This document shows positions 27,447-58,050 of a DNA stretch of 64,000 bases, in pieces. The notes below the pieces were generated by a model that saw nothing but the letters and a program-made list of their open reading frames with translations, had not been told where the DNA came from and ran no database searches. Position numbers and translations under genes: made by a program. The stretch is from Candidatus Poribacteria bacterium (GTDB lineage: Bacteria; Poribacteria; WGA-4E; WGA-3G), in the NCBI GenBank assembly GCA_963663765.2, contig CAXXUA010000005.1, positions 1,536,001-1,600,000 of the forward strand, in the 5' to 3' direction. How positions within the stretch are numbered: the first letter of the stretch is position 1; each line of letters starts with the position of its first letter.

Positions 27447-28686
27447 GTAGGAGGGAACTCCGATTCCCGACTATCAAGACGTTCAGTCGCGATTCGGAGA
27501 TCGCTCCTACAGAAAAAGTGTAAACTTAATTGTATATTTCACTATAATAGTGTCCCAGGACTGCACCCCATAGGTGTCAATTTAAGCAATTTGACCTCTT
27601 GTAGGAGGGGTTTTCAACCCCGATTTTATGGACATTTGCTCTCAAATCGGGGTTGAAAACCCCTCCCACAAGAGAAATACCAACACTTTTTTCTTATACT
27701 GGATTTTAGAATTATTTTTACACTTTCAGGTGTAGGAGGGAACTCCGATTCCCGACTATCAAGACGTTCAGTCGCGATTCGGAGATCGCTCCTACAGAAA
27801 AAGTGTAAACTTAATTGTATATTTCACTATAATAGTGTCCCAGGACTGCACCCCAAAGGCGTCAATTTAAGCAATTTGACCTCTTGTAGGAGGGGTTTTC
27901 AACCCCGATTTTATGGACATTTGCTCTCAAATCGGGGTTGAAAACCCCTCCCACAAGAGAAATACCAACACTTTTTTCTTATACTGGATTTTAGAATTAT
28001 TTTTACACTTTCAGGTGTAGGAGCGACCTCCGATTCCCGACTATCAAGACGTTCAGTCGCGATTCGGAGATCGCTCCTACAGAAAAAGTGTAAACTTAAT
28101 TGTATATTTCACTATAATAGTGTCCCAGGACTGCACCCCAAAGGCGTCAATTTAAGCAATTTGACCTCTTGTGGGAAGGGTTTTCAACCCCGATTTTATG
28201 GACATTTGCTCTCAAATCGGGGTTGAAAACCCCTCCCACAAGAGAAATACCAACACTTTTTTCTTATACTGGATTTTAGAATTATTTTTACACTTTCAGG
28301 TGTAGGAGGGAACTCCGATTCCCGACTATCAAGACGTTCAGTCGCGATTCGGAGATCGCTCCTACAGAAAAAGTGTAAACTTAATTGTATATTTCACTAT
28401 AATAGTGTCCCAGGACTGCACCCCAAAGGCGTCAATTTAAGGAATTTGACCTCTTGTAGGAGGGGTTTTCAACCCCGATTTTATGGACATTTGCTCTCAA
28501 ATCGGGGTTGAAAACCCCTCCCACAAGAGAAATACCAACACTTTTTTCTTATACTGGATTTTAGAATTATTTTTACACTTTCAGGTGTAGGAGGGAACTC
28601 CGATTCCCGACTATCAAAGCGTTCAGTCGCGATTCGGAGATCGCTCCTACAGAAAAAGTGTAAACTTAATTGTATATTTCACTATA
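27447..28686 (+). repeat. 285-bp composite unit (family-A plus family-B MITE parts) repeated ~4.3 times in tandem
   Basis: GTAG REP starts at 27447, 27732, 28017, 28302 and 28587. Confidence 0.95.
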
Positions 28687-28730
28687 AATTGACGTATATG
28701 AGTGTCTCAGAACTGCACCCTAACCTACAA

Positions 28731-31490
28731 CTAACGAATCGGCCATAATAGAATTGTACCATCATCACTCCCACTGGCAATAGTGGTACCATCTGGGGAA
28801 AACGCTACAAAAACGGAATCATTGTTCCTATGTCCAGTGAGTATAGTTACATCTTTCCATGTATCCGTTTGCCACAATCGTACTGTTCCGTCTCTACTTC
28901 CAATAGCGAGTATGGTTCCTTCAGGCGAAAACGCAATGGAAGTGACAGTCCTATCAGTTGGGAGTTGTACTATTTGCTTTGCTGTGCGTGTATTCCATAA
29001 GATCACAGAATTACCAGCACCTCCGCTGGCAATTATATTGCTATCCGGGGAAAACGCAACTGAATAAATACCCCTAATATGTCCTTGATATGTGGCAACG
29101 TGTTCTTGTGAGTGGACATCCCACAACCGGACAGTCCCATCATAACTCCCGCTTGCAAGTGTATTTCCGTCTGGAGAGAACGTTACAGCCTTGATAATTC
29201 GTGTATGTCCGGTAATTGTTGCTATCTGTTCTCTTGTGGGAATGTGCCACAATCGTAATGTTTTGTCCCAACTCCCGCTTGCAAGGATGTTTCCGTCCGG
29301 AGAAAACACTGCAGAAGAAACCCTTTCGGTATGACCTGAGAGTGTGTTTATGTATTTTTCGGTTTGTGCATCCCATAAACGTATCGTCTTGTCTGCACTT
29401 GTAGTAGCAATAGTTCTTCCATCCGGAGAATATGTGACGAATTCAACACCGGATGAATGCCCTTTCAGTACGGTTTTGAGTTGTCTGGCATGAACGTCCC
29501 ATACGTATCCCATCTTGTCCCAATTAGTGGTAGCGAGAATTTTTCCATCCGGTGAATATGCTACAGAAGTGATAAGTGATGCGTGTCCTTTAATTGTAGT
29601 CCTGAGTTTACCCGTTTGTGTGTTCCACAATTTCACTGTATTGTCCCAACCTGTGGTAGCGAGAGTTTTTCCATCTGGAGAAAACGCTACAGAAGTAACA
29701 GTGAAAATGTGATTACTGAGTGTAGCTTTTTGTTCTCCAGTATGTGCATTCCACAACCGCATAACGTCATTACTTCCAGTAGCAATAGTCTTTCCATCTG
29801 GAGAAAACGCTAACGAATAGATACCTGCATTAGTCTCTTTGATTTTAGTTATGAGTTCCCCCGATTGTGCATCCCACAATCGCAAGCTATTATCCAAACA
29901 TCCAGTAGCGATGTTTTTTCCATCAGGTGAATACGCGATAGAAGATACTGTTGATAAGTGACTTTTGAGCTTAGATGGTCCTGTGAGTGTTGCTAAATGC
30001 TGCCCTGTATGTGCGTTCCATAGGCGCGCTGTCTTGTCTGCACTTCCGGTAGCAATTGTCATACCATCCGGAGAAAAGGCGACGCAATAGATACTTTGGG
30101 TATGTCCTTTAAGTACCGTTATGAGTTTTCCTGTCCGTTTATTCCACACCCGTACTTCTGATTCTATACCTTCTTTTTCTGTTCTTCGCCATCTCACAAC
30201 CCCATCGCCTGTCGCCAGTGTGTTGCCATCCGGAGAAAATGCTACTGCAGTTATTTCCCGTTGATGTCCCACGAGTGTAGCTAAATGTGTTGCTGTCCGT
30301 GCATCCCATAAGCGGATAGATGCATCACGACTTCCACTGGCGAGAGTGATACCATCCGGAGAAAATGCTATTGCAGTCACATCGTACGGATGTCCTGTTA
30401 TTAGGTTAAGCTCTTTTACTTTGCCAGGACGGGCATCGTAAATCCATATCCCGATGGCACTTGCAACCGCAAGACGAGTACCATCAGGCGAAAAAGAGAT
30501 ATTTCCTGTTACTGCCCCTTTACCGAGTCTTGCTTTTGCACCTTTAGGTAACTCCCATTGTGTATAGTCTCCAGGTTCCGTAAGAACCTGATTCGATTCC
30601 TGTTCCGCACCATTGCTTGTGCCGGAAATATCAGAACTGTTTCCCTGCGGATTTCTTACATCATGTTTTGTATCAACATTCTGAACTATAGGCGAATCAA
30701 TGAGTTCTACTGTCATCTCTGACTCCATGTCTAAACTATAGGGTTGTTGGAAACGTGCTAACTGTTGGCTGCCCAATCCAAGAATCAACACAATCAAAAT
30801 AGCACCAGATGCAGCCAGCATCCACGGTATGGAAGGATGACTACCGGAAGACACAACAGGTTGAAGGTTAGCAATTTCTTTCATTATGTTCTCAGTTAAG
30901 TTTGCGGAAATTTGAAAATTACTGAGTGCTTCTGTAATCATGGGTTCCTCCTTTTTGAGTCGTTGTCTGGCACGACTAAGTCTACTCTTTATCGCACTTG
31001 GGGATACACCTAAAAAACGACTAATCTCTGAACAAGTCATGTCCCCGAAGTAGTGGAGTACCATCACCGTGCGTTCACTCTCTTTGAGTTTTGCAAGCAA
31101 CTTTTTAACGACCTTGCGTTGCGCATCTGCATTTACTTTTGCTTGTTCTGCAGCAACATATTGAGAATAAGCGGTTTCTACTATCATATCAGTTTCCATT
31201 TCTTCCAGGGATTCAGTGTCAATGGATTTCTTGCGGAGATATGCAAGACATTGCCGCGTTGCAATAACATATAGCCATCCTGAAAACTGATTAGGGTTCC
31301 TCAAGGTTGGTAGTTTCTGATAGACTTTTAAAAAGGTATCCTGTGTAATTTCTTCAGCAATATGGAAATCTCCTATTTTCCGCCAAGCAAGTGCGTGCAC
31401 TTGCTTTTGGTACTTTCTTACCAAATCTGCAAAAGCGGAATCATTACCTGCAAGGATCCTATTTATCAGTTCAACATCACTGTTTTTCAT
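28731..31490 (-). CDS. ECF sigma-70 factor fused via a TM helix to a WD40 beta-propeller
   Basis: Region 2 (AEEITQDTFLKVY...FSGWLYVIA), region 4 (EISRFLGVSPSAIKSRLSRARQRL), hydrophobic segment, then WD40 repeats; GAGGAG RBS before 31490. Confidence 0.93.
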   Translation of the reverse strand: MKNSDVELINRILAGNDSAFADLVRKYQKQVHALAWRKIGDFHIAEEITQDTFLKVYQKLPTLRNPNQFSGWLYVIATRQCLAYLRKKSIDTESLEEMETDMIVETAYSQYVAAEQAKVNADAQRKVVKKLLAKLKESERTVMVLHYFGDMTCSEISRFLGVSPSAIKSRLSRARQRLKKEEPMITEALSNFQISANLTENIMKEIANLQPVVSSGSHPSIPWMLAASGAILIVLILGLGSQQLARFQQPYSLDMESEMTVELIDSPIVQNVDTKHDVRNPQGNSSDISGTSNGAEQESNQVLTEPGDYTQWELPKGAKARLGKGAVTGNISFSPDGTRLAVASAIGIWIYDARPGKVKELNLITGHPYDVTAIAFSPDGITLASGSRDASIRLWDARTATHLATLVGHQREITAVAFSPDGNTLATGDGVVRWRRTEKEGIESEVRVWNKRTGKLITVLKGHTQSIYCVAFSPDGMTIATGSADKTARLWNAHTGQHLATLTGPSKLKSHLSTVSSIAYSPDGKNIATGCLDNSLRLWDAQSGELITKIKETNAGIYSLAFSPDGKTIATGSNDVMRLWNAHTGEQKATLSNHIFTVTSVAFSPDGKTLATTGWDNTVKLWNTQTGKLRTTIKGHASLITSVAYSPDGKILATTNWDKMGYVWDVHARQLKTVLKGHSSGVEFVTYSPDGRTIATTSADKTIRLWDAQTEKYINTLSGHTERVSSAVFSPDGNILASGSWDKTLRLWHIPTREQIATITGHTRIIKAVTFSPDGNTLASGSYDGTVRLWDVHSQEHVATYQGHIRGIYSVAFSPDSNIIASGGAGNSVILWNTRTAKQIVQLPTDRTVTSIAFSPEGTILAIGSRDGTVRLWQTDTWKDVTILTGHRNNDSVFVAFSPDGTTIASGSDDGTILLWPIR

Positions 31491-31538
31491 CAGACTCCTC
31501 AAAAGAAGATATAATCACATTTCAACATAAACCTACAT

Positions 31539-34313
31539 CTAACGAATCGTCCATAATAGAATTGTACCATCATCACTCCCACTGGCAATAGTGGTACCAT
31601 CTGGGGAAAATATGACAGAAGTTACCTCTCGCGTATGTCCTTTGAGTGTGGCAATGTGTCTTCCTGTGGATGTATTCCATAGACGCACAGTTTCATCAGC
31701 ACTACCAGTAACTATAATGGTACTATCAGGAGAATAGGTTACAGAATTAATCCTATTTTTGTGTCCTTTGAGGGTGGTAATGTGTTTTCCAGTATTTGCG
31801 TCCCACAACCGTACCGTTGAGTCCATACTTGCGCTGGCGAGAGTATTATTATCAGGCGCGAACATTATAGAATTAACAGTTTTCGTATGTCCCGTAAGTG
31901 TTGTTATGTGTTTTCCTGTACCCATATCCCATAACCGTACAGTCTTATCCCAACCACCACTCGCGAGTTTAGTCCCATCAGCGGAAAATGCTACGGAATT
32001 TATCCAGCCAGTATGTCCTGTAAGTGTTGTTTTGTGTTCTCCCGTTGATAAATGCCACAACTGCACTTCCATATCTGCCCCTGCAGTTGCAATCATCCTA
32101 CCGTCTGGTGAAAAGGTAACTGCAGCAATATATTCTTTGTTTGCTTTTTCGATTGTTACACTGTTTTTTTGAGTGAGTGTGTCCCAAACTCGGACTTTGT
32201 TGTCTCTACCTCCGGTAGCAATAGTGTTTCCATCTGGTGAATACGTTACGGACGTGGTTCCCCATGTATGATCTTTGAATTTGGCTATGTGTTTTCTGTT
32301 ATTTACATCCCATAAATAGACAGAATCACCACTGCCAGCGACGATAGTCTCACCATCTGGTGAATACGCCAAAGAAGAGATCCTACCAGAATATCCTGCA
32401 AATTTGGTAATACATTGTCTTGTGCGTACATCCCATAGTCGCACTGTACGATCTAAACTCATACTTGCAATCATATTGCTATCTGGTGAAAACGCTAAGA
32501 AATTAACCCAGCTTGTATGCCCTTTAAATGTAGCAATGTATTTTCTGGTCTGAGTGTCCAACAAACTCAATGATTTATCACTACCACTGATAGCAAGCGT
32601 ATTTCCATCTGGCGAATACCTCACGCAATGAATCGAGACCATCGTGTTACTTATCGGTGTGCATATCAGTATTGCATCGCGTATGTCCCACAACCATAAA
32701 TTATAGTCAGTACCTTTTGTAGCCGTTGCGATTGAATTTCCATCAGGAGCAAACGCGACTGACATGACATGACTTGCTTCTTCAGTGGCAACTACGCCGT
32801 GATCAAGATCAGTTTTGTGTTCACCTGTATGTGCATCTAACAATCGAACTGTAGTATCCATATCCATCGTACAAGCGATTGTGTTCCCATCCGGAGAAAA
32901 CACAACTGATGTTACATAATTCTCTTTATCTATAGATATGGTTTTATGCTCTCCTGAGGTGATGTTCCAGAACTTCAACGTTCCGCCTCCATTAGTAGCA
33001 GCGATTCTACTACCGTCTGGAGAATACACTACTGAATAGGCAGCACCTTGTGTTTTAAGAGTGGTTTTATTTTGTCCTGTCCCAAGATCCCATAGTCGCA
33101 CTGTCCTATCCGCGCCGCCACTTACGAGTGTTGTGCCATCAGGAGAAAATGCTACAGAATACACTTCTTCCGTATGTCCTACAAGCAGGTCAAGTTCTTT
33201 TTCTTTCCCGGAACGCACATCGTAGATCCAAATACCTATATCACCCGCAACCGCAAGTCTGGTACCATCTTGAGAAAAAGCAATATTGCTGGTAGAATGC
33301 TTATACCCAGTGTTCGGAAAGTACGGTCGGACTATATTTCCTTTACCAAGCCGTGCTTTTGCTCCTTCAGGGACATTCCATTGTGTATAGTCTATTGAAT
33401 CTAATAAACCCTGATCTGATTCCTGACCAGTGCCATCCCCTTTGTCAAAAGTATTGGTACTATTTCCCTGCGGATTTCTTACATCACGTTTTGCATCAAC
33501 ATTCTGAACAATAGGCGAATCAATGAGTTCTACTGTCATCTCTGACTCCATGTCTAAACTATAGGGTTGTTGGAAACGAGCTAATTGTTGACTACCTAAA
33601 CCAAGAAGCATGACAATCAAAACAAGACCAGATGCAGCCAACATCCAAGGAAAGAGAGGATTACCACCAGAAGGTGCAACAGGATTTAAATTTTCAACTT
33701 TTTTCATGATGTTATCAGTTAAGTTCGCAGATATTTGAAAATTGCTGAGTGTTTCGAGAATCATCGGTTCTTCTTTTCTTAGACGTTGTCTGGCACGGCT
33801 AAGTCTACTCTTTATCGCACTTGGGGATACACCTAAAAAACGACTAATCTCTGAACAAGTCATGTCCCCGAAGTAGTGGAGTATGATCACAGTGCGTTCA
33901 CTCTCTTTGAGTTTTGCAAGCAGCTTTTGAACAACCTCGCGTTGCGCATCTACATTTGCTTTTGCTTGTTCTGCAGCAATATATTGAGAATAAGCGGTTT
34001 CTTCTATCATATCAGTACCCATTTCTTCCAGGGATTCAGCAACAATGCGTTTCTTGCGGAGATATGCAAGACATTGCCGCGTTGCAATAACATATAGCCA
34101 TCCAGAAAACTGATTAGGATTCCTCAAGGTTGGTAGTTTCTGATAGACTTTTAAAAAGGCATCCTGTGTAATTTCTTCAGCAATATGGAAATCTCCTATT
34201 TTCCGCCAAACAAGTGCGTGTACTTGCTTTTGGTACTTTCTTACCAAATCTGCAAAAGCAGAATCATTACCTGCAAGGATCCTATTTATCAGTTCAACAT
34301 CACTGTGATTCAT
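31539..34313 (-). CDS. ECF sigma-70 factor-TM-WD40 fusion (tandem paralog)
   Basis: Same architecture as the downstream gene. Confidence 0.93.
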   Translation of the reverse strand: MNHSDVELINRILAGNDSAFADLVRKYQKQVHALVWRKIGDFHIAEEITQDAFLKVYQKLPTLRNPNQFSGWLYVIATRQCLAYLRKKRIVAESLEEMGTDMIEETAYSQYIAAEQAKANVDAQREVVQKLLAKLKESERTVIILHYFGDMTCSEISRFLGVSPSAIKSRLSRARQRLRKEEPMILETLSNFQISANLTDNIMKKVENLNPVAPSGGNPLFPWMLAASGLVLIVMLLGLGSQQLARFQQPYSLDMESEMTVELIDSPIVQNVDAKRDVRNPQGNSTNTFDKGDGTGQESDQGLLDSIDYTQWNVPEGAKARLGKGNIVRPYFPNTGYKHSTSNIAFSQDGTRLAVAGDIGIWIYDVRSGKEKELDLLVGHTEEVYSVAFSPDGTTLVSGGADRTVRLWDLGTGQNKTTLKTQGAAYSVVYSPDGSRIAATNGGGTLKFWNITSGEHKTISIDKENYVTSVVFSPDGNTIACTMDMDTTVRLLDAHTGEHKTDLDHGVVATEEASHVMSVAFAPDGNSIATATKGTDYNLWLWDIRDAILICTPISNTMVSIHCVRYSPDGNTLAISGSDKSLSLLDTQTRKYIATFKGHTSWVNFLAFSPDSNMIASMSLDRTVRLWDVRTRQCITKFAGYSGRISSLAYSPDGETIVAGSGDSVYLWDVNNRKHIAKFKDHTWGTTSVTYSPDGNTIATGGRDNKVRVWDTLTQKNSVTIEKANKEYIAAVTFSPDGRMIATAGADMEVQLWHLSTGEHKTTLTGHTGWINSVAFSADGTKLASGGWDKTVRLWDMGTGKHITTLTGHTKTVNSIMFAPDNNTLASASMDSTVRLWDANTGKHITTLKGHKNRINSVTYSPDSTIIVTGSADETVRLWNTSTGRHIATLKGHTREVTSVIFSPDGTTIASGSDDGTILLWTIR

Positions 34314-34407
34314 CTGATACTCCGGTTTGAGATCAATTGTTGTTCTTTCTAACTATTAAGACGCGGAATAGAGGTAAAACGGTCGCAAAATTCTGCAGAG
34401 AGTATGT

Positions 34408-34545
34408 TATACCAATTCAAATAAATCTTGTCTCATTAAGGAATTCTACTGTTTACTGGCAGGGGGTTACTCTCTTCGGTAGGAGCGACCTCCCGGTCGC
34501 GATTTTCTCAAGAACAGCTAAAATGCCTAAAACTGAATAACCCTG
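34408..34545. mobile_element. Chimeric MITE: family-D left end, single REP, family-C right end
   Basis: 34408-34502 nearly matches 60919-61013; the element ends in AAAACTGAATAACCCTG. Confidence 0.7.
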
Positions 34546-34584
34546 ATAGTCAGTATTGTGAAATTGATTTGTATGATGGCAGAA

Positions 34585-37137: not shown

Positions 37138-37252
37138 TTAATTCTACAACATTTTAACCCAAGTTTGCCAAACAAAATTCACAGAACACTAAGGGTGAAT
37201 TAAAAAGTATATGTCGTTCTTTCAATACCTTCGCCAATAATAGACATTCTGT

Positions 37253-37348: not shown

Positions 37349-37391
37349 ATGAAGATTAATTTATTTATTAGGTATCCATATATTTTCCCAC

Positions 37392-38009: not shown

Positions 38010-38151
38010 CATAAGCGTCAATTTAAGGATTTTCACCTCTTGTGGGAGGGGTTTTCAACCCCGATTTTACGCGCTTTTCCTCTCAAATCGGGGTTGAAAA
38101 CCCCTCCCACAAGAGAAACACCAACACTTTTTTCTTAAATTGACGCCTATG
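38010..38151. mobile_element. Family-B MITE with an internal long inverted repeat
   Basis: CATAAGCGTCAATTTAAG ... CTTAAATTGACGCCTATG; internal GTGGGAGGGGTTTTCAACCCCGATTT doublet. Confidence 0.85.
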
Positions 38152-38327
38152 GGGCGTGGAGACCACGCCCCTACGAATACCCAACTTGAACGTCAAAACT
38201 CATTAGGTTGTAGGTTCTGAACTTTTGGGTATATCTCCAGGAAGAACATTATCAATTGTATCATAACAGCTGCCTATGTCAATCAATACCAGATGCAGAT
38301 TAAGTTAGCGAGCTACTTTTCTCTATC

Positions 38328-38682
38328 CATAGGCGTCAATTTAAGTAAGAAGTTCCCTATTCTTGTGTAAGTGAAACCTTGGATGTTCTAATTCCTTCAG
38401 ATGGCACCTTTATTGTAGGGGCGGGGTTTCCCCGCCCGATTGGAAGTTCGTTTACACGGCCGAGGAGACCTCGCCCCATAGGCGTCAATTTAAGAATTTA
38501 TTGTTGTCATTTTTCTTGTGGGAGGGGTTTTCAACCCCGATTTGAGCGGAAATGCACTAAAAAATCGGGGTTGAAAACCCCTCCCACAAGAGGTGAAAAT
38601 CCTTAAATTGACGCCTATGGGGCGAGGAGACCTCGCCCCTACGATGTGTGCGAGGATTAGCTGCCTTAAATTGACGCCTATG
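38328..38682. mobile_element. Family-B MITE with a second family-B MITE nested at 38477-38619
   Basis: Both have CATAGGCGTCAATTTAAG TIRs; flanking direct repeats of 20 bp (16/20 identical) and 19 bp (18/19). Confidence 0.88.
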
Positions 38683-38687
38683 GTGTA

Positions 38688-40124
38688 CTATTTTTCTCTA
38701 TCAGACACAAGCAGATCATAGGAATTGCTTTGCCAACCACCTTCCATCACAATATTATCTCTGGTATCACGTAGCCGTTTTACCATACGGTCTTTCATAC
38801 GACGAAGGACATGTTTATATCCAAGATGCGTAGCAAGATTATGTAGTTCATGTGGGTCGCTTTGCATGTCGTAGAGTTCATCCTGACTGTATGGATTATA
38901 TACGTATTTCCACTTATCAGTACGCACCATCCGAACAGTTGCAAGGGTTGCTTCATATCCATGAAATTCAGCAAAAACATCGTCGTACCAATCATCAACT
39001 TTTTCACCGTTGAGCAGTGGCACAATTGACCTGCCGTCAAGATTGTTAGGTACTGTTGCGTCACCGAATTCCAAAAAAGTAGGCATAAGATCAACGAGAT
39101 TTACAAACTCATTACAAGTTGCACCAGGTGAAGTAACACCTTGCCATCGGATAAGAAGCGGAATGTGGTGTGTTTCTTCATACATGTGAAAACCTTTGTT
39201 GAACAGCCGATGACTTCCGAGCATATCTCCGTGATCAGTAGAAAAGATGACAATCGTGTTCTCTGCTAAACCGTTCTCATCAAGTGTTTGTAAAATTCGT
39301 TGAATTTGGTGATCGATGAAGGTACAGAATCCCCAATATGCAGCGATAACTTTCTGCCAATCTTTCCATGTCAGATGACTGGAATTCCATCGCAGCATCT
39401 CTTTCTGTTGAATTAGCGGTTTGTTGATGAATTGCTCATCAAAATTACCCCAACGTTCAACAGTATCAGGATCGTATAGCGTATCATAGGGTTCAGGTAC
39501 AGCGTAAGGAAAGTGCGGTCCAAAGAAATTTGCCGCGATCATAAATGGTTTATCAGAACCAGAATATCCGTCAATTAATTCAATCGTTTTGTCTGCAGTC
39601 CACGCTTCCATTGTCCGTTCAGCAGGGAGAGGCAGTCTTCCATAAAATGGTGCATCTCCACCCCACTCAAATGGTTGGACAGCATCGCGGTCTATCCTAA
39701 AGTCAATCCCATCGTCGCGTAACCATTGGTGCCACTCATTATAGGGATGCCATTTGTCATAACCCCAAAACCCGGTGTCTCCCTGTTTTGCTAAATGCCA
39801 CTTACCAATTGAAGAAACGTTATATCCAGCAGCATTCAGCAGTTGTGGATATGCTGGCTTATTGAGTATCTGTTCCCCAAAAACACCATTGAAGTTACCC
39901 ATATTTGAAAGCTGCCCGTGGTTATGTGGGTAAAGTCCGGTAAGGAGTGAACCACGCGCTGGGGAACATAGGGCTATGGGAGTATAGGCTTTTGTAAAAC
40001 GCATTCCGGTCGCAGCGAGATTGTCTAATGCTGGCGTTTGGCAAACTGGTGCCCCATTGCAACCGAGTGAATCATATCGTTGCTGATCTGTCAGCAGAAA
40101 AAGTATATTTGGTGACTGTGCCAT
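38688..40124 (-). CDS. Sulfatase (Cys-type, formylglycine-dependent)
   Basis: PNILFLLTDQQR, CSPARGSLLTG, GKWHL, STDHGDMLG, ELYD...DPHE. Confidence 0.95.
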   Translation of the reverse strand: MAQSPNILFLLTDQQRYDSLGCNGAPVCQTPALDNLAATGMRFTKAYTPIALCSPARGSLLTGLYPHNHGQLSNMGNFNGVFGEQILNKPAYPQLLNAAGYNVSSIGKWHLAKQGDTGFWGYDKWHPYNEWHQWLRDDGIDFRIDRDAVQPFEWGGDAPFYGRLPLPAERTMEAWTADKTIELIDGYSGSDKPFMIAANFFGPHFPYAVPEPYDTLYDPDTVERWGNFDEQFINKPLIQQKEMLRWNSSHLTWKDWQKVIAAYWGFCTFIDHQIQRILQTLDENGLAENTIVIFSTDHGDMLGSHRLFNKGFHMYEETHHIPLLIRWQGVTSPGATCNEFVNLVDLMPTFLEFGDATVPNNLDGRSIVPLLNGEKVDDWYDDVFAEFHGYEATLATVRMVRTDKWKYVYNPYSQDELYDMQSDPHELHNLATHLGYKHVLRRMKDRMVKRLRDTRDNIVMEGGWQSNSYDLLVSDREK

Positions 40125-40163
40125 AATTACTCCTTTTTAGTATATAGATTGATGTTCGGTATC

Positions 40164-43521: not shown

Positions 43522-43532
43522 TACTGAATTAA

Positions 43533-48685: not shown

Positions 48686-48791
48686 TTTGGGCAGCAGAAA
48701 TGTTTTATCACGATTGATATAGCAGTATTGTACTGTTCTAAATAATCTTCGTTATCAATCAGTTTTTTGGCAAATATCCAGACAAAATCAA

Positions 48792-49586: not shown

Positions 49587-49667
49587 TATTGCTTGAACCT
49601 CAGAAAAATGGTGTATTTCACGCATACACCCTAATGTTCAAATTGCGATGTATTGGAGTGCCGCGTG

Positions 49668-51491
49668 ATGAAGATCCAACCGAGACTTTCACAAACTCAG
49701 TTACAACAACAGAAAATTGTCATGACACCGAAGTTGCAACAAGCGATTAAGGTGCTGATGATGCCGCAACTTGAACTAAGGCAGTTTATTGAACAAGAGC
49801 TAAACCAGAACCCACTTTTGGATATTAACGAAGAGAATGAAACTGCTTTATCTATGGAAGAATATGATCCAAGATTTGAATGTAACCAGCCTGAGGAGAA
49901 TATTGATAGGGAAGATACCGCTGTTGATATTGATTGGAATTCAGTTATTGACGATATGCGGGTACCGACTTCAAAAGAACTTGTTCAAACCGATGATAGT
50001 GATGCTCCCGAACCTGATGTTGCTGAAGCACAATCGTTACAAAGTTATTTATTTCAACAACTTCAGTTAGCACCTTTTACAGAAATAGAACGTTCTATCG
50101 GTGAACAAATTATTGGGAACCTAAATGATGATGGTCAGCTTCAATTAAAACTGTTTTCACTACCGCTAAAATTCGTTTCTGATTTTGAAACGGGTCATTT
50201 ATCTGAAGAATTACAAACAAGTCTATCAAAGAAATTATGTAAGATAGAGAATGATAGCAAATCATCAAAAACAGACAAAGAAAACCGTTGTTTTGAGATT
50301 GTTCAAATAGAATCTTCTCAAAAGGCTATAGTTTCTAATTCTGGTGCGAAAATTTGGTATATCGTTGACAAAACAGACAAAGAAGACCTTGACAATAAAA
50401 ACAAGAAAATATATACAGTTGTTTGTGAAGATAACGATTTATCCTTATTCGAACTTACCATAGAAGACATTGCGATTAGCCAAAATTGTTCGGTTGCAGA
50501 AGTAGAAAAAGTACTGCAAACAATACAAGATACTTTTGAACCAACTGGTATTGCTTACCGTGATCTAAAGGAAACACTCAGCATTCAGATTCGAAACCAA
50601 AGATTTCAGCAATTTCAACAAAACGGTACATCCTTAAATGGAAGTGAAGCACCATTGGCATTAGCAAAACGTATTATTGATGACCATTTAGATGACCTAC
50701 TAAATAGTAGAATTTCAACGTTGTCCGAAGACCTTGAAGTAGACAAGGACGAGATTATAAAGGCATCGCAATGGATAGGGACACTTTCACCATATCCTGG
50801 TCGTTATTTCTCTGATCCTACCGTGAAAGATTTAGTCAAATCACCTGAAACTATACAAGGAATCGTACCAGATATTCAAATTATGGAGATTGACGGTGAA
50901 TATCAGATCGTTCCGATGGACAATTATATTCCACGTTTACGCATGAACCCAGAATATATAAACTTAATGCGAGATAATAGTAATTTAGACCATGACGCAA
51001 AAATGTGGATTCAACAGAAATATAACGATGCTATGGATGTTCTGAACAGTATTGTTCAACGTGGACGTACTATTGAACGGGTCACAGAAGCAATATTTAA
51101 AGTACAATCCGATTTTCTAAAACACGGTACACAAAGTATAAAACCATTGACACTGAAAACTATTGCAGATATGGCAGGTGTTCATGAATCGACGGTGAGT
51201 CGCGTAACAAGTAAAAAGTATGTTCAAACACCGAACGGTACATACCCACTGAAATTCTTTTTTAGTAATCAATTAGCAACAACACATGGCAATTCAGTGT
51301 CTTCTGAACATGTGAAATCTGAAATAAGAGATATGATTAGAAAAGAAGACCGAGCAAAACCATTAAGCGATCAAACCATAAGTACATCATTGAAAAAACA
51401 AGGTGTCATAGTTGCCAGACGGACTGTTCAAAAATATCGGGAAGAACTTGGCATACTATCTTCACGGCAAAGAAAAAACCTTGAAAAGTAA
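49668..51491 (+). CDS. rpoN: RNA polymerase sigma-54 factor with an internal insertion
   Basis: MTPKLQQAIK, NPLL, HESTVSR, RpoN box ARRTVQKYRE. Confidence 0.95.
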   Translation: MKIQPRLSQTQLQQQKIVMTPKLQQAIKVLMMPQLELRQFIEQELNQNPLLDINEENETALSMEEYDPRFECNQPEENIDREDTAVDIDWNSVIDDMRVPTSKELVQTDDSDAPEPDVAEAQSLQSYLFQQLQLAPFTEIERSIGEQIIGNLNDDGQLQLKLFSLPLKFVSDFETGHLSEELQTSLSKKLCKIENDSKSSKTDKENRCFEIVQIESSQKAIVSNSGAKIWYIVDKTDKEDLDNKNKKIYTVVCEDNDLSLFELTIEDIAISQNCSVAEVEKVLQTIQDTFEPTGIAYRDLKETLSIQIRNQRFQQFQQNGTSLNGSEAPLALAKRIIDDHLDDLLNSRISTLSEDLEVDKDEIIKASQWIGTLSPYPGRYFSDPTVKDLVKSPETIQGIVPDIQIMEIDGEYQIVPMDNYIPRLRMNPEYINLMRDNSNLDHDAKMWIQQKYNDAMDVLNSIVQRGRTIERVTEAIFKVQSDFLKHGTQSIKPLTLKTIADMAGVHESTVSRVTSKKYVQTPNGTYPLKFFFSNQLATTHGNSVSSEHVKSEIRDMIRKEDRAKPLSDQTISTSLKKQGVIVARRTVQKYREELGILSSRQRKNLEK

Positions 51492-51494
51492 TAC

Positions 51495-51761
51495 TATGGT
51501 AAATTATGGAATTAATTACACACTTGCACAGGTAGGAGCGACCACTGAGTCGCGATCGTCCCCTGCGTGGGTAGGAGCGACCTCCTGGTCGCGACTGTCC
51601 CCTGCGTGGGTAGGAAGGGGCGACCTCCTGGTCGCGACTGTCCCCTGCGTGGGTAGGAGCGACCTCTTGGTCGCGACTGTTTTGATACATGGTCTCCATA
51701 CGGTCGTGACCAGGAGGTCGCTCCTACCTGTTGTGTATAATTATCTTCAAACTTCACCATA
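51495..51761. mobile_element. Family-A MITE with 4 x ~39-bp REP units and an inverted REP
   Basis: TA-TGGTAAATTATGGAATTAATT ... AATTATCTTCAAACTTCACCA-TA; same unit as 2682-3255. Confidence 0.85.
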
Positions 51762-51845
51762 GTCAATGTCATTTTGCTTTTTGATTGCAATAATTTCCGT
51801 TGAAAACTTTCAATCTTTATACATATATCTTCTGGAGGGAATACT

Positions 51846-52403
51846 ATGAAAATTACATATTCAGGTCAACATCTCAAAATTACAGATGATATTCACGACT
51901 ATATCCTTAAACGTGCAGAGAAGATAGAATCTCGGTTTGGAGATATGCAAGAGTTTAATGTTATTCTGAAATCGGAAAAGCATCGTTTTGAAGCAGAGGT
52001 AAAAGTTACAGCACCACGAGTTTCATTTTATGCAAAGAACGAGACTCATGATCTGATGAGTGCGTTAGATGGAGCTGCCGACAAAGTCATCAAACAGATT
52101 CGTCGATACAAAGAACGCGTCAAAGACAGACGTCATAATGCACCGCATCGTGAAGTTGTAGCACAATTAAACCCAGAAATGTTAGAAACTCCAGTAGAAA
52201 CGGATACGTCTGATGCACCGATGATAGTACCTGCATCCGAGAAATTTGCCGCAAAACCATTGACGGTAGGTGAAGCTGCGACTGAACTTCATTCCTCTGG
52301 TGAATCATTATTGATGTTTCTTAACTCTGAAACGCGACAGGTCAACTTACTTTACCAATCAGACAATGGTGCTTTTGGATGGGTTGAACCCTCATTTACG
52401 TAA
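51846..52403 (+). CDS. hpf: Ribosome hibernation promoting factor (long HPF/RaiA)
   Basis: ITYSGQHLKITD...DLMSALDGAADK...IRRYKER; C-terminal KPLTVGEA...FLNSET..VNLLY; follows rpoN. Confidence 0.9.
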   Translation: MKITYSGQHLKITDDIHDYILKRAEKIESRFGDMQEFNVILKSEKHRFEAEVKVTAPRVSFYAKNETHDLMSALDGAADKVIKQIRRYKERVKDRRHNAPHREVVAQLNPEMLETPVETDTSDAPMIVPASEKFAAKPLTVGEAATELHSSGESLLMFLNSETRQVNLLYQSDNGAFGWVEPSFT

Positions 52404-52580
52404 AGTTATTTTGTGAATTATTCATACAATTAGATGTCTCATTTGTAGGAGCGATCTCCGATTTACTGCAAAATACTGCAATAGCCAGGAATCGGAGTTC
52501 CCTCCTACATTACAAAGATCTATAATTAATCCTATAATGCAACAAAACATTCAAATAACGAACAATTTTCTTTCACATTA

Positions 52581-52808
52581 GCAGGACTTACGCAACCAAT
52601 GGTAGGCGTGCTTTGTAAGCGCGCCGGAAACCTGAAAAGTGCTGAAAATTACATCGTTTTCGTCTTAATGCTTCATCAAATCATGAAAACTGCAGCAGGA
52701 CTTACGCAACCAATGGTAGGCGTGCTTTGTAAGCGCGCCGGAAACCTGAAAAGTGCTGAAAATTACATCGTTTTCGTCTTAATTCTTCATCAAATCATGA
52801 AAACTGCG
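52581..52808 (+). repeat. 2 x 114-bp direct repeat of a CAGGACTTACGCA-ended element with one REP core
   Basis: Copies start at 52581 and 52695; the inverted end TGCGTAAATTCTG follows. Confidence 0.85.
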
Positions 52809-52842
52809 TAAATTCTGATTTGATTTCCTATCAGGTAAGAAT

Positions 52843-55497
52843 ATGACAAGTCTACCGAAGATTTACGATCCTCAGGAGTTTGAGGACAAATGGTACCAAT
52901 TTTGGCAAAGTAATGGTTTTTTTCATGCCGAATCCACTTCTGACAAACCCGCCTATGCGATAGTTATTCCCCCACCAAACATAACTGGTAGTCTGCATAT
53001 TGGACATGCACTTGATAACACACTCCAAGATTGTCTGATTAGATGGCGGCGCATGCAAGGTTACAATACACTTTGGATGCCGGGAACAGACCATGCGGGT
53101 ATTGTTACTGAACTTATAATGGAAAAAAAACTTGCTGAAGAAGGTACCAGCCGAAACGAACTTGGCAGAGAGAAGTTCATTGAACGTATGTGGCAATGGA
53201 AAAAGGAATCCGCCGGATATATTGTCTCGCAGCTACAACAACTGGGTTGTTCTTGTGATTGGGAACGGGAAAGGTTTACACTTGATGATGGGTTATCACA
53301 AGCTGTCCGAACTGCTTTTGTAAAACTCTATAACCAAGGACTGATATATCGTGATACGTATATGGTAAACTGGTGTCCTGAATGTAATACCGCAGTCAGC
53401 AACCTTGAGGTAGAACCGGTTGAAATTGATGGGAATTTCTATCATATTCAATATCCTGTGATGGATAGTAAAGTTGTACTTGAAATTGCTACGACACGGC
53501 CAGAAACAATGTTAGGAGATACCGCAGTTGCTGTGCATCCTGATGATGACAGATACCAGAATTTGGTTGGAAAAAAGGTGCTTCTTCCACTTGTAAATAG
53601 AGAAATACCAATCATAGCAGATGCTTATGTTGATACCGAATTTGGAACAGGTGCATTAAAAGTCACCCCTGCTCATGATGTCAATGACTATGAAATCGGT
53701 CTAAGGCACGACCTTGAACAACGAAACATCTTTACACCAGATGGACACATGAACGAAGATGCGGGAGAAGGCTATGTTGGCTTGTCGAGATGGAACTGCA
53801 GAAAAAGCGTCGTTGAAGATCTGGAGAAGAAGGGATATCTTGTCAAAATTGTTCCTCACAGACACGCAGTTGGACATCACGATAGATGCAATGCAATCGT
53901 TGAACCTGCCATATCACTACAATGGTTTATGAATGTGCGTCCTCTTGCACAACGTGCTATAGAAGCAACAAAAAAAGGCGAAATCAAATTCATACCTGAA
54001 CGTGAAACATCACGCTTTTTTCACTGGATGGAGAATATTGAACCGTGGCCCATTTCACGACAAAGATGGTGGGGACACAGATTACCTATATGGTATTGTG
54101 ATGCATGTGAAAAAATCATTGCAGCAATGGATACACCGCAGCAGTGCGAGTGTGGGTCAACAACCTTTCAGCAAGATGAAGATGTATTGGATACCTGGTT
54201 TAGTTCCGGCTTGTGGCCCTTTTCAACTATGGGATGGCCACAAGAAACTGATGAGTTGAAAACCTTTTATCCCACATCCGTGCTTGTCACTGGTTGGGAT
54301 ATACTGTTCTTCTGGGTGGCAAGGATGATTATGTTAGGTCTGGGATGTATGGACGAAGTGCCATTCCGTACAGTGTACTTGCACGGGCTTGTTGCTGACG
54401 AAAAAGGTCAGAAGATGAGCAAATCAAAAGGAAACAGTATTGATCCGTTGCAGACAATTGAAACCTACGGTACGGATGCATTCCGATTTGCGCTTGCAAA
54501 TGTAAGTACACCAATACCTTACGTGCCACTTCCAGAATCCCAGATAGAAGCGGGAAAAAGGTTTGCTAACAAAATCTGGAACTCAGCAAGGTTTATTCTG
54601 ATGAATTTGGAAAAATATCCAGTTCCAACAGAGAAACAAAACCATAGGAAAGATGACCCATTAGAGGTTCAATGGATACAGAGCCGCCTTAGCAAAACGA
54701 TAGAGGCTACGACAGATGCACTTGAAAACTTCCGTTTTTACGAAGTTGCGCAGACACTCTACGCATTTCTGTGGCATGAATTCTGTGATTGGTATCTGGA
54801 ATTTGCTAAACAACAGCTTACAAAAAACAATCCAGAAGCATTATGGTATGCTGCTAATGTCTTGGAACAAGTAATGCGCCTCTTGCACCCGATCATGCCA
54901 TTTTTAACTGAGGAAATTTGGCAACTACTTCCGCACACTAAAATTTCTACGTCTTCTAATGAACCTACTTCAGTTGCTATAGCACCCTGGCCAGAACCAA
55001 CTACAGAGAACCCGACAGCCGAAGTTATCATGACAACAATCATGGAAGTTATTGATAATATTAGAAGTATTCGTGGTGAGTTGAATGTGCCAATTGGGGC
55101 AGCAGTGGAGATACATATCCAATCACCAAATGCTGAAGTACGTACTAGACTTGAAACCTATCTTGACCAATACCTACCGGCTTTCACAAAAGTAGAGTCA
55201 ATCACTATTGCCGAGACATTGGAGAAACCGTCTAACTCTGCTGAAGCTGTGATAGGTGAACTGACTATCTATATTCCATTGATTGGGATCATTGATCTTG
55301 AAGCGGAACATGCCCGACTAACAAAACGTCATCAGCAAACAAGTAAAGACGTACTTGCTGCTCAGAAAACTTTAGACAATCCGAACTTTATAGAACGTGC
55401 TCCGAAAAATGTGATTACACAAAAACGTGAATTACTTGAAAGGTTATTGCTCGAACAAAAGAAATTAGCACGTAGTCTTGCAATGCTTTCTAAGTGA
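52843..55497 (+). CDS. valS: Valine--tRNA ligase
   Basis: PPPNITGSLHIGHAL, ATTRPETMLGD, KMSKSKGN, C-terminal coiled coil. Confidence 0.98.
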   Translation: MTSLPKIYDPQEFEDKWYQFWQSNGFFHAESTSDKPAYAIVIPPPNITGSLHIGHALDNTLQDCLIRWRRMQGYNTLWMPGTDHAGIVTELIMEKKLAEEGTSRNELGREKFIERMWQWKKESAGYIVSQLQQLGCSCDWERERFTLDDGLSQAVRTAFVKLYNQGLIYRDTYMVNWCPECNTAVSNLEVEPVEIDGNFYHIQYPVMDSKVVLEIATTRPETMLGDTAVAVHPDDDRYQNLVGKKVLLPLVNREIPIIADAYVDTEFGTGALKVTPAHDVNDYEIGLRHDLEQRNIFTPDGHMNEDAGEGYVGLSRWNCRKSVVEDLEKKGYLVKIVPHRHAVGHHDRCNAIVEPAISLQWFMNVRPLAQRAIEATKKGEIKFIPERETSRFFHWMENIEPWPISRQRWWGHRLPIWYCDACEKIIAAMDTPQQCECGSTTFQQDEDVLDTWFSSGLWPFSTMGWPQETDELKTFYPTSVLVTGWDILFFWVARMIMLGLGCMDEVPFRTVYLHGLVADEKGQKMSKSKGNSIDPLQTIETYGTDAFRFALANVSTPIPYVPLPESQIEAGKRFANKIWNSARFILMNLEKYPVPTEKQNHRKDDPLEVQWIQSRLSKTIEATTDALENFRFYEVAQTLYAFLWHEFCDWYLEFAKQQLTKNNPEALWYAANVLEQVMRLLHPIMPFLTEEIWQLLPHTKISTSSNEPTSVAIAPWPEPTTENPTAEVIMTTIMEVIDNIRSIRGELNVPIGAAVEIHIQSPNAEVRTRLETYLDQYLPAFTKVESITIAETLEKPSNSAEAVIGELTIYIPLIGIIDLEAEHARLTKRHQQTSKDVLAAQKTLDNPNFIERAPKNVITQKRELLERLLLEQKKLARSLAMLSK

Positions 55498-55538
55498 AAA
55501 TCTACTTATAAATACCTACGCAACATAGTAATGAAAAT

Positions 55539-55970
55539 ATGGGAATTGAAAATAACAATCGCTGTTTTGTTTGCGGCAAGAAAAATCCGTATGGGTTGCA
55601 AGTGAACCCGGAAATCAGGAACGCTGGAGCCGAAGTTCACATAGAATGCACCCCTCCCGAACACATGCAAGGTTGGGCAAACATTCTACACGGTGGTATC
55701 ATAAGTACACTCTTAGATGAGGCTATCACCCACATTGGAATAGGCACTTATGACGGCCCTGCTGTTACAGCACAACTTGAAGTGCGTTTTCGTAAACCAG
55801 CACCAACAGGTGTGAAGCTCTTTGTTTTTGCAGAGCGTACAAAAGTTTCACGACGTTTAATTGAGGCAAAGGCAGAGGTAAAACTTGACGATCAAACACT
55901 TATCGCTACTGGTACAGGCAAAGTTGTACCTGTTGATGAGAGTTTCGCACCGACACCTTCAACGCAATAG
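55539..55970 (+). CDS. PaaI-family thioesterase
   Basis: CFVCG..NPYGL, HGGIISTLLDE, TAQLEVRFRKP. Confidence 0.9.
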   Translation: MGIENNNRCFVCGKKNPYGLQVNPEIRNAGAEVHIECTPPEHMQGWANILHGGIISTLLDEAITHIGIGTYDGPAVTAQLEVRFRKPAPTGVKLFVFAERTKVSRRLIEAKAEVKLDDQTLIATGTGKVVPVDESFAPTPSTQ

Positions 55971-56001
55971 ACGTAAATGCTGAAAGGTTTGCAGCATATT
56001 T

Positions 56002-57684
56002 ATGAATACAGAAACAGATTTTTCGCCAATGAATTCAGAAGCGGGTATAGATTGGTCTACAGATGTCTTAATAATTGGTAGTGGTGCTGCAGGATTAAGG
56101 GCTGCACTTGCTGCAAGTGAAAGTGCTGATGTCACATTAATCACAAAAACAACCCTTAAAGAGAGTAATACGCTCTACGCGCAAGGTGGTATAGCCGTTG
56201 CTATGAACGTTGATGACACTGTTGACCTGCATGTCAAGGATACATGCAGTGCTGGGTGTGGTTTATGCGATACTCGTGTCGTAGAAACAATGGTTGAAGA
56301 AGGTATCCCCAGGGTAAATGAATTGTTGGAATGGGGTGCTGACTTTGATTGGGAAGGAACACTTCCCCGTTTTACACAAGAAGCCGCACACAGTCGCAGA
56401 AGAATCGTCCATAAAGGGGATGCCACTGGTCGTGAAACAACGGATGTTCTTGTTCAACGAGTATTAAATACAGAACGTATACATGTCTTATCAGATGCCT
56501 TTGCTGTTGATCTTATTACAGATGCAGAGTTTTCTACTGATAATATTGGTACAGCATGTCATGGCGTATCTGCTATCGTAGGAGGTCAACTAAAACATCT
56601 TTATGCCAAAGCAACAATTCTTGCGACAGGTGGACTTGGTCGTCTCTATCCGTGTACATCTAACCCTGAGGTTGCCACTGGAGATGGTTTTGCTGCAGCT
56701 TGGCGGGCAGGTTGTCAGATGATAGATATGGAGTTCGTCCAGTTCCACCCGACAACACTTTTCCTCGATGGTGCTCCAAGTTTTCTCATCTCAGAAGCAG
56801 TCCGAGGCGAAGGTGGACGATTGATCAACATTCGTGGTGAACGTTTCATGGATAAATACCATGAGAAAGGTGAACTTGCACCGCGCGATGTCGTCAGCAG
56901 AGCCATCCAAAATGAAATGTTTCTGACAGACTTCCCTTGTGTATATCTTGATATAACACACAAACCCGCAGATTTCATTAAAGAACGCTTCCCTACAATA
57001 TCTGCTACAACAAAACGCTATGGACTTGATATCAATATAGACTTAATTCCTGTGAGGCCGGGAGCACACTTTATGATGGGAGGAATTCGCACCGACGTTG
57101 AAACGGAAACGAATTTGCACGGACTTTATGCATGTGGTGAGGTAGCTTGCACTGGAGTACACGGTGCCAACCGTTTGGCAAGTAACTCACTGTTAGAATG
57201 TCTTGTTTTTGGCGTTCGTGCCGGAAGAAATGCAGCATCTTATGCAGTATCGCTAACATGTGAATCACCAACAAGAATCCAAATTGAGAAAAGTGACATT
57301 AATGAAGACCCAATCGTGTTAGAGGATGAAGTAATACTTGAACTGAAGGATGCTATTCGGGAGACGCTCTGGGAGAACGTCGCGATTGAACGCGATCAAG
57401 AGGGATTAGAACTCACGCTATCCGATCTTGAAGAAATAGGTGCAGAACTCAATCTACATCCAAGTTCATCAATGCCTATACAGACAACGGATGTCGGTTT
57501 TTGTGAAACTATCAATATGTTGAATGTTGCATGGATGATTACGAAGGCAGCACTGACCAGAGATGAAAGCCGTGGGGCACACTACCGTGCAGATTTTCCT
57601 GATCAGGACGAATCTGGTTGGCAGAGACGTACTGTGATGGCACAAAACAAAGAACCTGAATTTGTCAAACTAAAGTCTAATTAG
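56002..57684 (+). CDS. nadB: L-aspartate oxidase
   Basis: GSGAAGL, YAQGGIA, EAAHSRRRIVH, QFHPT, GVHGANRLASNSLLE, ESRGAHYR. Confidence 0.95.
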   Translation: MNTETDFSPMNSEAGIDWSTDVLIIGSGAAGLRAALAASESADVTLITKTTLKESNTLYAQGGIAVAMNVDDTVDLHVKDTCSAGCGLCDTRVVETMVEEGIPRVNELLEWGADFDWEGTLPRFTQEAAHSRRRIVHKGDATGRETTDVLVQRVLNTERIHVLSDAFAVDLITDAEFSTDNIGTACHGVSAIVGGQLKHLYAKATILATGGLGRLYPCTSNPEVATGDGFAAAWRAGCQMIDMEFVQFHPTTLFLDGAPSFLISEAVRGEGGRLINIRGERFMDKYHEKGELAPRDVVSRAIQNEMFLTDFPCVYLDITHKPADFIKERFPTISATTKRYGLDINIDLIPVRPGAHFMMGGIRTDVETETNLHGLYACGEVACTGVHGANRLASNSLLECLVFGVRAGRNAASYAVSLTCESPTRIQIEKSDINEDPIVLEDEVILELKDAIRETLWENVAIERDQEGLELTLSDLEEIGAELNLHPSSSMPIQTTDVGFCETINMLNVAWMITKAALTRDESRGAHYRADFPDQDESGWQRRTVMAQNKEPEFVKLKSN

Positions 57685-57685
57685 C

Positions 57686-58050
57686 CAGGGTTATTTAGTT
57701 TTAAGAATTATCAGTTAATGGGTGTTACTTAAAGTTTATATCGTAGGTCGGGTAGAGCGTATGCGAAACCCATAGGTATCAACTTAAGAAAAAAATGTTG
57801 GCATATTCGCTTGTGGGAGGGGTTTGTAACCCCGATTTGAGTGGAAATGAACATAAAATCGGGGTTGCAAACCCCTCCCACAAGAGGTCAGAATCCTTAA
57901 GTTGACACCTATGGGTAGAGCGTATGCGAAACCCTACATGTATTGATTTTGTCTATCATGTCGGGTTTCGCTCACGCTCTACCCGACCTACGATATTAAA
58001 TCACGAATGTTATAAATATCTGCCAAAATATCTAAAACTGAATAACCCTG
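57686..58050. mobile_element. Family-C MITE with 9-bp TSD, containing a nested family-B MITE (57771-57913)
   Basis: TSD CTAATTAGC at 57677-57685 and 58051-58059; inner element flanked by a perfect 20-bp repeat GGTAGAGCGTATGCGAAACC. Confidence 0.9.

Follow-up and report, generated by a model that had tools for sequence, protein, structure and literature searches.

Miniature inverted-repeat elements with 19-20 bp target duplications in a Poribacteria genome and their probable derivation from an IS4-related insertion sequence

A stretch of 64,000 nucleotides from a Candidatus Poribacteria bacterium (contig CAXXUA010000005.1, G000:C5:1536001-1600000 within a 6.35-Mb genome; referred to below as the window) contains several transposable elements of the miniature inverted-repeat type (MITEs) bounded by unusually long direct repeats, and it raises the question of how a transposition reaction could give rise to repeats of this length. 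Candidatus Poribacteria are sponge symbionts. An earlier, sequence-only reading of the window had proposed that a transposase cutting on either side of a hairpin explains both the length of the repeats and the multiplication of repetitive extragenic palindrome (REP) hairpins. Our analysis favours a different explanation, to which we assign a probability of roughly 0.8: the MITEs are internally deleted, non-coding derivatives of an insertion sequence (IS) with a DDE transposase of the Tn5 fold, and the 19-20 bp stagger is set by this transposase, a hairpin being unneeded.

Target duplications and the parent insertion sequence

The MITEs are recognised by the end motif CATAGGYGTCAAYTTAAG, for which 15 matches (with up to three mismatches) are found in the window, against 0.18 expected from shuffles, and 457 matches (with up to two mismatches) in the genome. 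Pairs of ends spaced 140-149 bp apart number 121 in the whole genome. A flanking direct repeat was present in 106 of the 144 adjacent end pairs less than 260 bp apart, with a length of 19 bp in 60 of them, 20 bp in 44 and 21 bp in two; the repeat was perfect for 62 of the 144 pairs and contained one mismatch in 25. Of the longer end pairs, 16 of 24 also had such a flanking repeat. When the right flanks were dealt to other elements as a control, 128 of 2880 pairs reached the same score, in every case because the elements share target families. The elements are thus small and non-coding, with terminal inverted repeats, many copies and target duplications, as is characteristic of MITEs. Within the window, the four long direct-repeat pairs that had been reported earlier were all recovered, each directly abutting the ends of its element (Table 1), as was a fifth element lying between two different REP-like sequences, which has no duplication and is probably a recombinant between copies. 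The window also provides an internal control, in that a non-coding element at 57686-58050, which surrounds one of the MITEs and whose ends match those of a 1315-bp IS of the same genome (CAGGGTTATTTAGTTTTA...), is flanked by an ordinary and perfect 9-bp duplication CTAATTAGC (57677-57685/58051-58059).

Evidence that the long repeats were generated by insertion comes from empty sites. Paralogous sites within the genome were used for this purpose, as the nearest genomes are only 88-89% identical in a neighbouring gene and their intergenic DNA is unalignable. One MITE in the window is nested within an outer non-coding element, in which a 19-mer is present on both sides of it. In four paralogs of the outer element (on contigs C11, C5 (two copies) and C7), this 19-mer, GGGCGAGG.GACCTCGCCC, occurs once and uninterrupted in the context ...cgtttacacGGGCGAGG.GACCTCGCCCctacgatgtg..., and in a fifth paralog (C4) it lies within a short tandem run. 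Additionally, the 120 elements that bear a duplication represent 48 distinct target sequences, about 18 of which have just two genomic occurrences, namely the flanks of a single element; these targets are therefore neither pre-existing repeat pairs nor part of the mobile unit. The flanking repeats are true target duplications, and the inference of a MITE family with unusually long target duplications, originally drawn from the window, holds for the genome as a whole.

The sequence-only reading had also called for a search for an autonomous IS with the same ends. Such an IS was found in genomes of the same genus and is absent from the window's genome. It is 1.45-1.49 kb in length, has ends as in the MITEs and carries a single open reading frame (ORF) for a DDE transposase of 442 amino acids. 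Among 20 relatives, the exact end motif was present in 10 of the 12 genomes of the same genus and in none of the eight from other families of the order. A 1470-bp copy at G008:C11:33884-35353 with MITE-type ends is flanked on both sides by GTGCGGTTTCCTAACCGCAC (20/20). For 116 of the 144 MITEs, one end resembles the left and the other the right end of the IS, as expected of derivatives formed by internal deletion. Relatives of the transposase (47-100% identity) were detected in 24 of the 39 further genomes of the genus. The window's own genome yielded no relative of the transposase (best tblastn E 0.43), its 79 DDE_Tnp_1 matches include no IS type with the MITE ends, and its large end pairs turned out to be MITEs that carry either tandem-repeat cargo or a nested Tn5-like IS. 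Unless a copy of the IS lies in an assembly gap, the approximately 150-200 MITEs of this genome are thus orphans with no cognate transposase in their own genome. Two of the elements with cargo (L002, G000:C2:50379-51526; L003, G000:C4:650664-651783) belong to a class of 0.5-1.1 kb with the same ends and 19-20 bp duplications; their cargo consists of long arrays of short tandem repeats that are open in several frames, and their right end is the variant CATAGGTGTCAACTTAGC.

The 442-amino-acid transposase matches Pfam DDE_Tnp_1 (PF01609) at 6e-24 and the NCBIfam IS4 model NF033592 with 201 bits, the cut-off being 115. Its AlphaFold model has a predicted local distance difference test (pLDDT) score of 94.8, and the best match of this model among solved structures is Tn5 transposase (4dm0_A, E 6.5e-9, template modelling (TM) score 0.52), followed by piggyBac. 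A profile search of PDB sequences with the transposase returned nothing at E <=1, the Tn5 dimerisation domain was not detected in the protein by Pfam, and neither a homologue search nor a cluster look-up provided a name for it. In an alignment of 86 sequences of the clade formed by this transposase and its relatives, D121 is conserved in 85, D193 in 86 and E327 in 85, and their spacers of 71 and 133 residues lie within the D(60-110)D(100-150)E spacing of IS4 (PMC2266710). Similarly, R323, E327 and K334 are conserved in 86, 85 and 86 sequences. The Y position (320) is occupied by Y in only 18 of the 86 sequences and in two of the 11 from Poribacteria, and hence most of the clade lacks the full Y(2)R(3)E(6)K motif.

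The duplications of the IS itself are also long. From Poribacteria 80 loci were collected, 71 of which have both ends. Duplications flank 54 of these 71 full copies, with lengths of 17 bp (n=2), 18 bp (n=8), 19 bp (n=20) and 20 bp (n=24). By subfamily, all 11 copies of the 1488-bp IS have 20 bp, 19 bp is seen for the 1466-bp subfamily and 18 bp for the 1446-bp one, and two copies of 1448-1451 bp have 17 bp. Judged from these copies, duplication length is characteristic of each IS subfamily to within one base. The nearest annotated relatives in the plasmid collection are two copies from Chloroflexota, of which the one on plasmid pHAU01 of Herpetosiphon aurantiacus (transposase 34.6% identical) has a 21/21 duplication and the other, on a Chlorohelix plasmid (31% identical), a 20/20 duplication. 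In metagenomes, 12 of the 53 evaluable loci, out of 77 diverse ones, were duplicated (18 bp, n=1; 20 bp, n=8; 21 bp, n=2; 22 bp, n=1), and duplications of 9-12 bp were seen at none of the 53. A profile of the poribacterial proteins retrieved 1844 clusters (at the 50% identity level, E <=1e-30) from a library of 1.84 billion proteins. Some IS copies (L100, L105 and L136 from Poribacteria; L247 from a metagenome) are flanked by a sequence and its own reverse complement; in the Poribacteria cases this is the same REP with its loop inverted, whereas in L247 it is a 21-mer without palindromic symmetry. Such flanks may have arisen when copies lying in repeats of opposite orientation recombined.

Target sites and the length of the duplication

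To derive a consensus of the target sites, one representative of each distinct target was used (n=48). At the first duplicated position, 85% of the targets have G on both sides, and at the second 75-79% have G; the third position holds G or T. Immediately outside the duplication, G is present in 65-79%, with T three bases outside in 46-65% and G four bases outside in about 50%. The symmetric consensus thus consists of inverted half-sites, GTnG|GGK ... MCC|CnAC. A GTAG-tagged REP is a short G+C-rich palindrome that occurs in many copies and has an unpaired GTAG at one end. A number of target families have the form gtag|GGGCGGGG...CCCCGCCC|ctac, with 86-164 near copies; other targets are non-palindromic. 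REP-like hairpins of the GTAG type fit the consensus on both sides. Six matches to the Y1 transposase family (IS200 or REP-associated tyrosine transposase (RAYT) type; Table 1) are present in this genome, which is full of putative GTAG-tagged REPs.

When an element inserts into a REP, both of its flanks retain a complete REP, and each insertion hence adds one REP copy. One REP variant has 86 near-identical copies, 44 of which are explained by 22 occupied sites; of the 43 copies of the 20-mer GGTAGAGCGATAGCGAAACC, 36 are explained by 18 occupied sites. Adjacent MITEs separated by exactly one 19-20-bp spacer form 24 pairs. In nine of these, the identity between the neighbours is only 55-90% and a higher similarity is shown by 13 to 138 elements located elsewhere, which indicates independent insertions in which a duplicated target copy was hit again; in the other 15, the neighbours are >=98% identical, which indicates local duplication of a unit of MITE plus spacer. 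Of the earlier proposal on REP targeting and multiplication, the part that stands is that hairpins are favoured and are duplicated whole; recognition of a hairpin is not required, given the small number of palindromic targets described below. The copying of intact REP hairpins would thereby be a by-product of transposition.

In the mechanism that we propose, the 3'-OH groups at both element ends would be joined by the transposase complex to phosphates of the target lying about 19-20 bp apart, a stagger of nearly two helical turns rather than one, and repair of the gaps would duplicate the whole interval. Either the active sites would be further apart or the target would be strongly bent. GTAG-tagged REP hairpins would be hit frequently because they present both half-sites at the right spacing, they would be duplicated whole, and each duplicated REP would constitute a fresh target. 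The MITEs of the window's genome would now be left without their transposase. Tn5 itself duplicates 9 bp. With Tn5/IS50 (PDB 4dm0, 1muh) the elements studied here have the DDE chemistry in common, and cut-and-paste movement via hairpins at the element ends would presumably be shared as well. A large natural clade of the Tn5 fold with about twice the stagger raises the question of how sites 19-20 bp apart reach the active sites, and it supplies natural variants of an enzyme class that is widely used as a laboratory tool.

Several observations weigh against this proposal. The geometry of the complex is purely our inference, and the evidence consists of resting copies, from which transposition itself is inferred. 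The shift from the 11 bp of IS231A (see below) is 8-9 bp, which falls short of a full turn of 10.5 bp. Within one IS subfamily the duplication is 19 or 20 bp long, depending on a one-base difference in length between target variants, and the cuts therefore follow the end motifs of the target and no rigid ruler. A duplication is lacking from 38 of the 144 MITEs, is absent or poor in 17 of the 71 IS copies, and is not seen at 41 of the 53 evaluable metagenome loci. Of the 38 MITEs, 24 retain a left flank that ends with C and a right flank that starts with G, and the two flanks are often from two different target families; the missing duplications of MITEs and IS are tentatively attributed to recombination between copies, as has been argued for the hybrid flanks of ISRm22 (PMC1525189). 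At most of the 41 metagenome loci the flanks are two different complete GGGCG...CGCCC palindromes, and these loci are tentatively read as chimeric short contigs resulting from assembly across a repeated IS. Lastly, at least five symmetric inner pairs are present in six of the 48 distinct targets, compared with 1% of control 19-20-mers having the same end letters; DNA structure may contribute to the choice of target, and palindromes also take many insertions.

The last of these observations bears directly on the alternative of a transposase that recognises a hairpin or cruciform after its extrusion and cleaves at the base on either side, which would make the duplication equal to the hairpin. 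We consider this unlikely. It would account for the enrichment of palindromic targets, for the exact duplication of a whole REP palindrome in many insertions (e.g., GGGCGGGGTCTCCCCGCCC, GGGTTGGGTAACCCAACCC and GTGCGGTTTCCTAACCGCAC), and for the 1488-bp IS subfamily, in which one REP family hosts eight of the 11 copies; a cruciform would also bring the cut sites together in a manner suiting active sites of ordinary spacing. However, 42 of the 48 distinct targets are non-palindromic inside (examples are GGTATATAAACATTTCGTCC, GGTTTTAATTTTCCCATACC and GGCATCCCTCAAAAAACCC), about 18 of the 48 are found solely as the flanks of one element, and all are 19-20 bp in length. The perfect 20/20 duplication of the window is itself non-palindromic, and in some hairpin targets the cuts are asymmetric about the stem, as with CGGCGGGGTACAGAGACCC, which starts 2 nt outside and ends 3 nt inside it. 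The hairpin model fails because of the many non-palindromic targets, and it is retained only as a possible contributor to target preference. Structure-specific cutting around a hairpin, which the sequence-only reading had put forward as the cause of the length, is accordingly not supported: targets without a palindrome that belong to single elements are of the same length, the enzyme is predicted to be a DDE enzyme of the Tn5 fold, and the conserved feature of the targets is the inverted half-sites.

It is far less probable still that the repeats were not made by insertion, the element either having landed between tandem REPs or carrying a copy of the repeat with which it homes to matching sites. 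Many targets do belong to abundant repeat families, so that side-by-side like copies are conceivable, and shuffled partners still match at the rate given above. Yet the paralogs without a MITE carry the 19-mer once, the targets seen solely as the flanks of one element can neither have been pre-existing pairs nor have been carried along, and a single element family is found at 48 different targets. Immediate tandem duplicates of 19 and 20 bp are also rare in the genome (5 and 1, respectively), and none of them is target-like, so that there is likewise no sign of excision leaving REP doublets. The idea that a Tn5-like IS with a 470-amino-acid transposase (Pfam Dimer_Tnp_Tn5; four copies in the window's genome) moves the MITEs can be practically dismissed: at C4:1180654-1182460 its gene does lie between two MITE ends with a 19/19 repeat around the whole, but it has inverted ends (CTTwCTTTTACCCATAAGTTT) and an 8-bp duplication CTTGTGGG of its own inside the MITE body and is therefore a nested insertion, and its three other copies all lack such a bounding pair of MITE ends, the nearby matches being one-sided. 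The four copies are located at L001 255-2061 (G000:C4:1180654-1182460) and near C6:430133-431359, C6:355626-356852 and C5:1130470-1131696; the copy nested in the MITE has a frameshift near codon 60, and the other three are intact and encode an identical protein.

Relationship to known insertion sequences

Target duplication length mirrors the geometry of the transposase complex and is one criterion by which IS are sorted into families. Annotation pipelines that expect duplications of <15 bp will mis-set the boundaries of the elements described here. The hallmark of the IS4 group is a duplication of about one helical turn, 7-13 bp (PMC2266710). The clade has the single-ORF transposase of the DDE_Tnp_1/IS4 type that characterises this group, and its duplications are of 17-22 bp in every case where they are clear. 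Two outcomes had been named in advance as counting against the sequence-only reading, namely that copies throughout the genome mostly lack such repeats, or that the cognate IS belongs to an already described family with long duplications and no preference for hairpins. As found, most of the copies do have the repeats (106/144), and the cognate IS is placed in an IS4/IS231-related group that is described, with duplications of 7-13 bp (PMC2266710).

The closest known system is IS231. The motif CATAGGYGTCAAYTTAAG fits the end consensus of the IS231 subgroup, CAT-------AA--TAA--- (PMC2266710 Table 1), at positions 1-3, 11-12 and 15-17, and an IS231-type copy from Bacillus thuringiensis, the host of IS231A, has the ends CATGCCCATCAACTCAAGAG and CATACCCATCAACTTAAGAA, with TCAAYTTAAG in common with the poribacterial MITEs. 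Both IS231 and the poribacterial IS have a single-ORF DDE transposase. The target motif of IS231A is GGGNNNNNCCC, with an 11-bp duplication (PMC2577343 Table 1); this target, GGG(N)5CCC, has the same G-rich and C-rich inverted ends as the poribacterial targets, in which they are 8-9 bp further apart. IS231A moves its non-autonomous derivatives, the MIC231 cassettes, in trans (PMC6199540), which resembles the relationship proposed here for the MITEs. After the two Chloroflexota records, the IS231-type transposases of Bacillus are the next-nearest annotated ones, with 27-28% identity over 93% of the protein. In contrast to these similarities, IS231 duplicates 10-12 bp (PMC2266710) and the poribacterial clade 17-22 bp; the host of IS231 is Bacillus, whereas the clade occurs in Poribacteria, Chloroflexota and environmental bacteria; and the Y of the YREK motif is, unlike in IS231, not conserved. 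The duplication of IS231 was unreadable in four copies from Bacillus/Clostridium, where one end was missing or the flanks were unmatched, and the values of 10-12 bp and 11 bp used here are those of PMC2266710 and PMC2577343. The IS231 subgroup is delimited by close similarity, with many pairs >50% identical, and by 10-12 bp duplications, and the clade shows neither. Where the YREK motif was incomplete and the duplication length atypical, groups have been split off as separate families (PMC2266710). By NCBI's model the protein is an IS4 family transposase. The clade is described here as IS4-related and nearest to IS231/ISH8; because the Y of YREK is mostly absent and the duplication is 17-22 bp, it is set outside the IS231 subgroup.

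Other elements with long duplications or a preference for REPs differ from the clade in more basic respects. The IS1202 group also makes long duplications (16-28 bp), and its members have a TnsB/Tn7-like transposase and TGT...ACA ends; no target preference was found for the long-duplication members (PMC10132070). This enzyme is unrelated, as the clade matches the DDE_Tnp_1/IS4 model and has CAT ends, and the clade does not belong to that group. The known IS that target REPs are ISRm22 (IS4 family), ISPpu9, ISPpu10, ISPa11 and ISRm19 (IS110) and ISPsy8 (IS3) (PMC1525189); these interrupt the REP at a fixed position inside it and have direct repeats of 0-6 bp, whereas here the whole REP is duplicated and is intact on both sides. 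In the IS4-related IS1634/IS1549, direct repeats range from 8 to 514 bp and vary between copies of one element (PMC2266710), while in the clade the length is held within one base per subfamily. The Nezha MITE and ISNpu3 were also considered and were rejected, the direct repeat of Nezha being 10 bp (PMC6042816) and the hosts here being Poribacteria. A full-text literature search found no description of an IS4-type element with duplications of about 20 bp; ISfinder and the supplements of PMC2266710 were outside this search and could hold one. It is conceivable, and we suggest it only tentatively, that the clade represents an undescribed, family-level IS4-related lineage that is widespread in the environment, with IS231-like ends, a degenerate YREK motif, duplications of 17-22 bp, a near-two-turn attack on the target, and, in REP-rich genomes, RAYT-independent multiplication of REPs through the copying of whole, unbroken hairpins.

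Arrangement of the elements in the window

The elements of the window and their target copies are listed in Table 1, together with the Y1 transposase matches of the genome.

Table 1. Positions of the MITEs, of their flanking target copies and of related features. Positions are those of the window unless a contig is given.
Feature	Position	Strand	Remark
Element 1, left target copy (AGTGTCCCAGGACTGCACCC)	27549..27568	.	18/20 vs 28701-28720
Element 1, MITE swollen by 285-bp tandem array	27569..28700	+	left end intact, right end degenerate (28683-28700)
Element 1, right target copy	28701..28720	.	abuts element
142-bp MITE, no duplication	38010..38151	+	between two different REP-like sequences
Outer element, left target copy	38308..38327	.	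16/20 vs 38683-38702
Outer non-coding element holding nested MITE	38328..38682	+	same ends, different body; genomic paralogs without inner MITE
Nested MITE, left 19-bp duplication (REP palindrome)	38458..38476	.	18/19; paralogs have 19-mer once
143-bp MITE nested within outer element	38477..38619	+	
Nested MITE, right 19-bp duplication	38620..38638	.	
Outer element, right target copy	38683..38702	.	
Perfect 20-bp duplication GGTAGAGCGTATGCGAAACC, left copy	57751..57770	.	20/20; non-palindromic
143-bp MITE	57771..57913	+	one end parent-IS-left-like, other parent-IS-right-like
Perfect 20-bp duplication, right copy	57914..57933	.	
Inverted partner arm, same target family as 57751-57770	57960..57992	-	uninterrupted, hence single-copy target; sequence reading
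Y1 transposase family matches	G000:C5:688634-688987, C3:287718-288071, C5:550867-551220, C5:353059-353373, C4:621661-621987, C10:25146-25277		

Element 1 holds a tandem array, placed at 27447-28687, with a period of 285, 4.4 copies and 98% matches. Its repeat unit is made up of the target copy, a left portion of the MITE and, in addition, a second hairpin element, which is also present just upstream; an amplification via recombination between both copies of the second hairpin element fits this arrangement. In four public runs the contigs all break at the repeats. One contig of run X9 joins position 57749 to 57913 and so skips 163 bases, which correspond to the 143-bp MITE and a 20-bp repeat. 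On the shorter side of this contig only 43 letters fit, and the flank is a repeat, so that it may be a paralog, and it was not counted as evidence.

Three diverged single ends with 2-3 mismatches and no recognisable partner are located on the minus strand at 22101-22118, 24770-24787 and 25135-25152. The second of these belongs to a repeat of about 300 bp, also found at G000:C5:396178-396485 and at about 15 other places, which has one variant end CATAGGTGTCAATATAAG that always follows the same 60 bases and which contains multiple GTCCCGTAGGGAC hairpins. Lastly, at 57686-58050 three repeat layers are nested, the MITE and its hairpin target lying inside another element.

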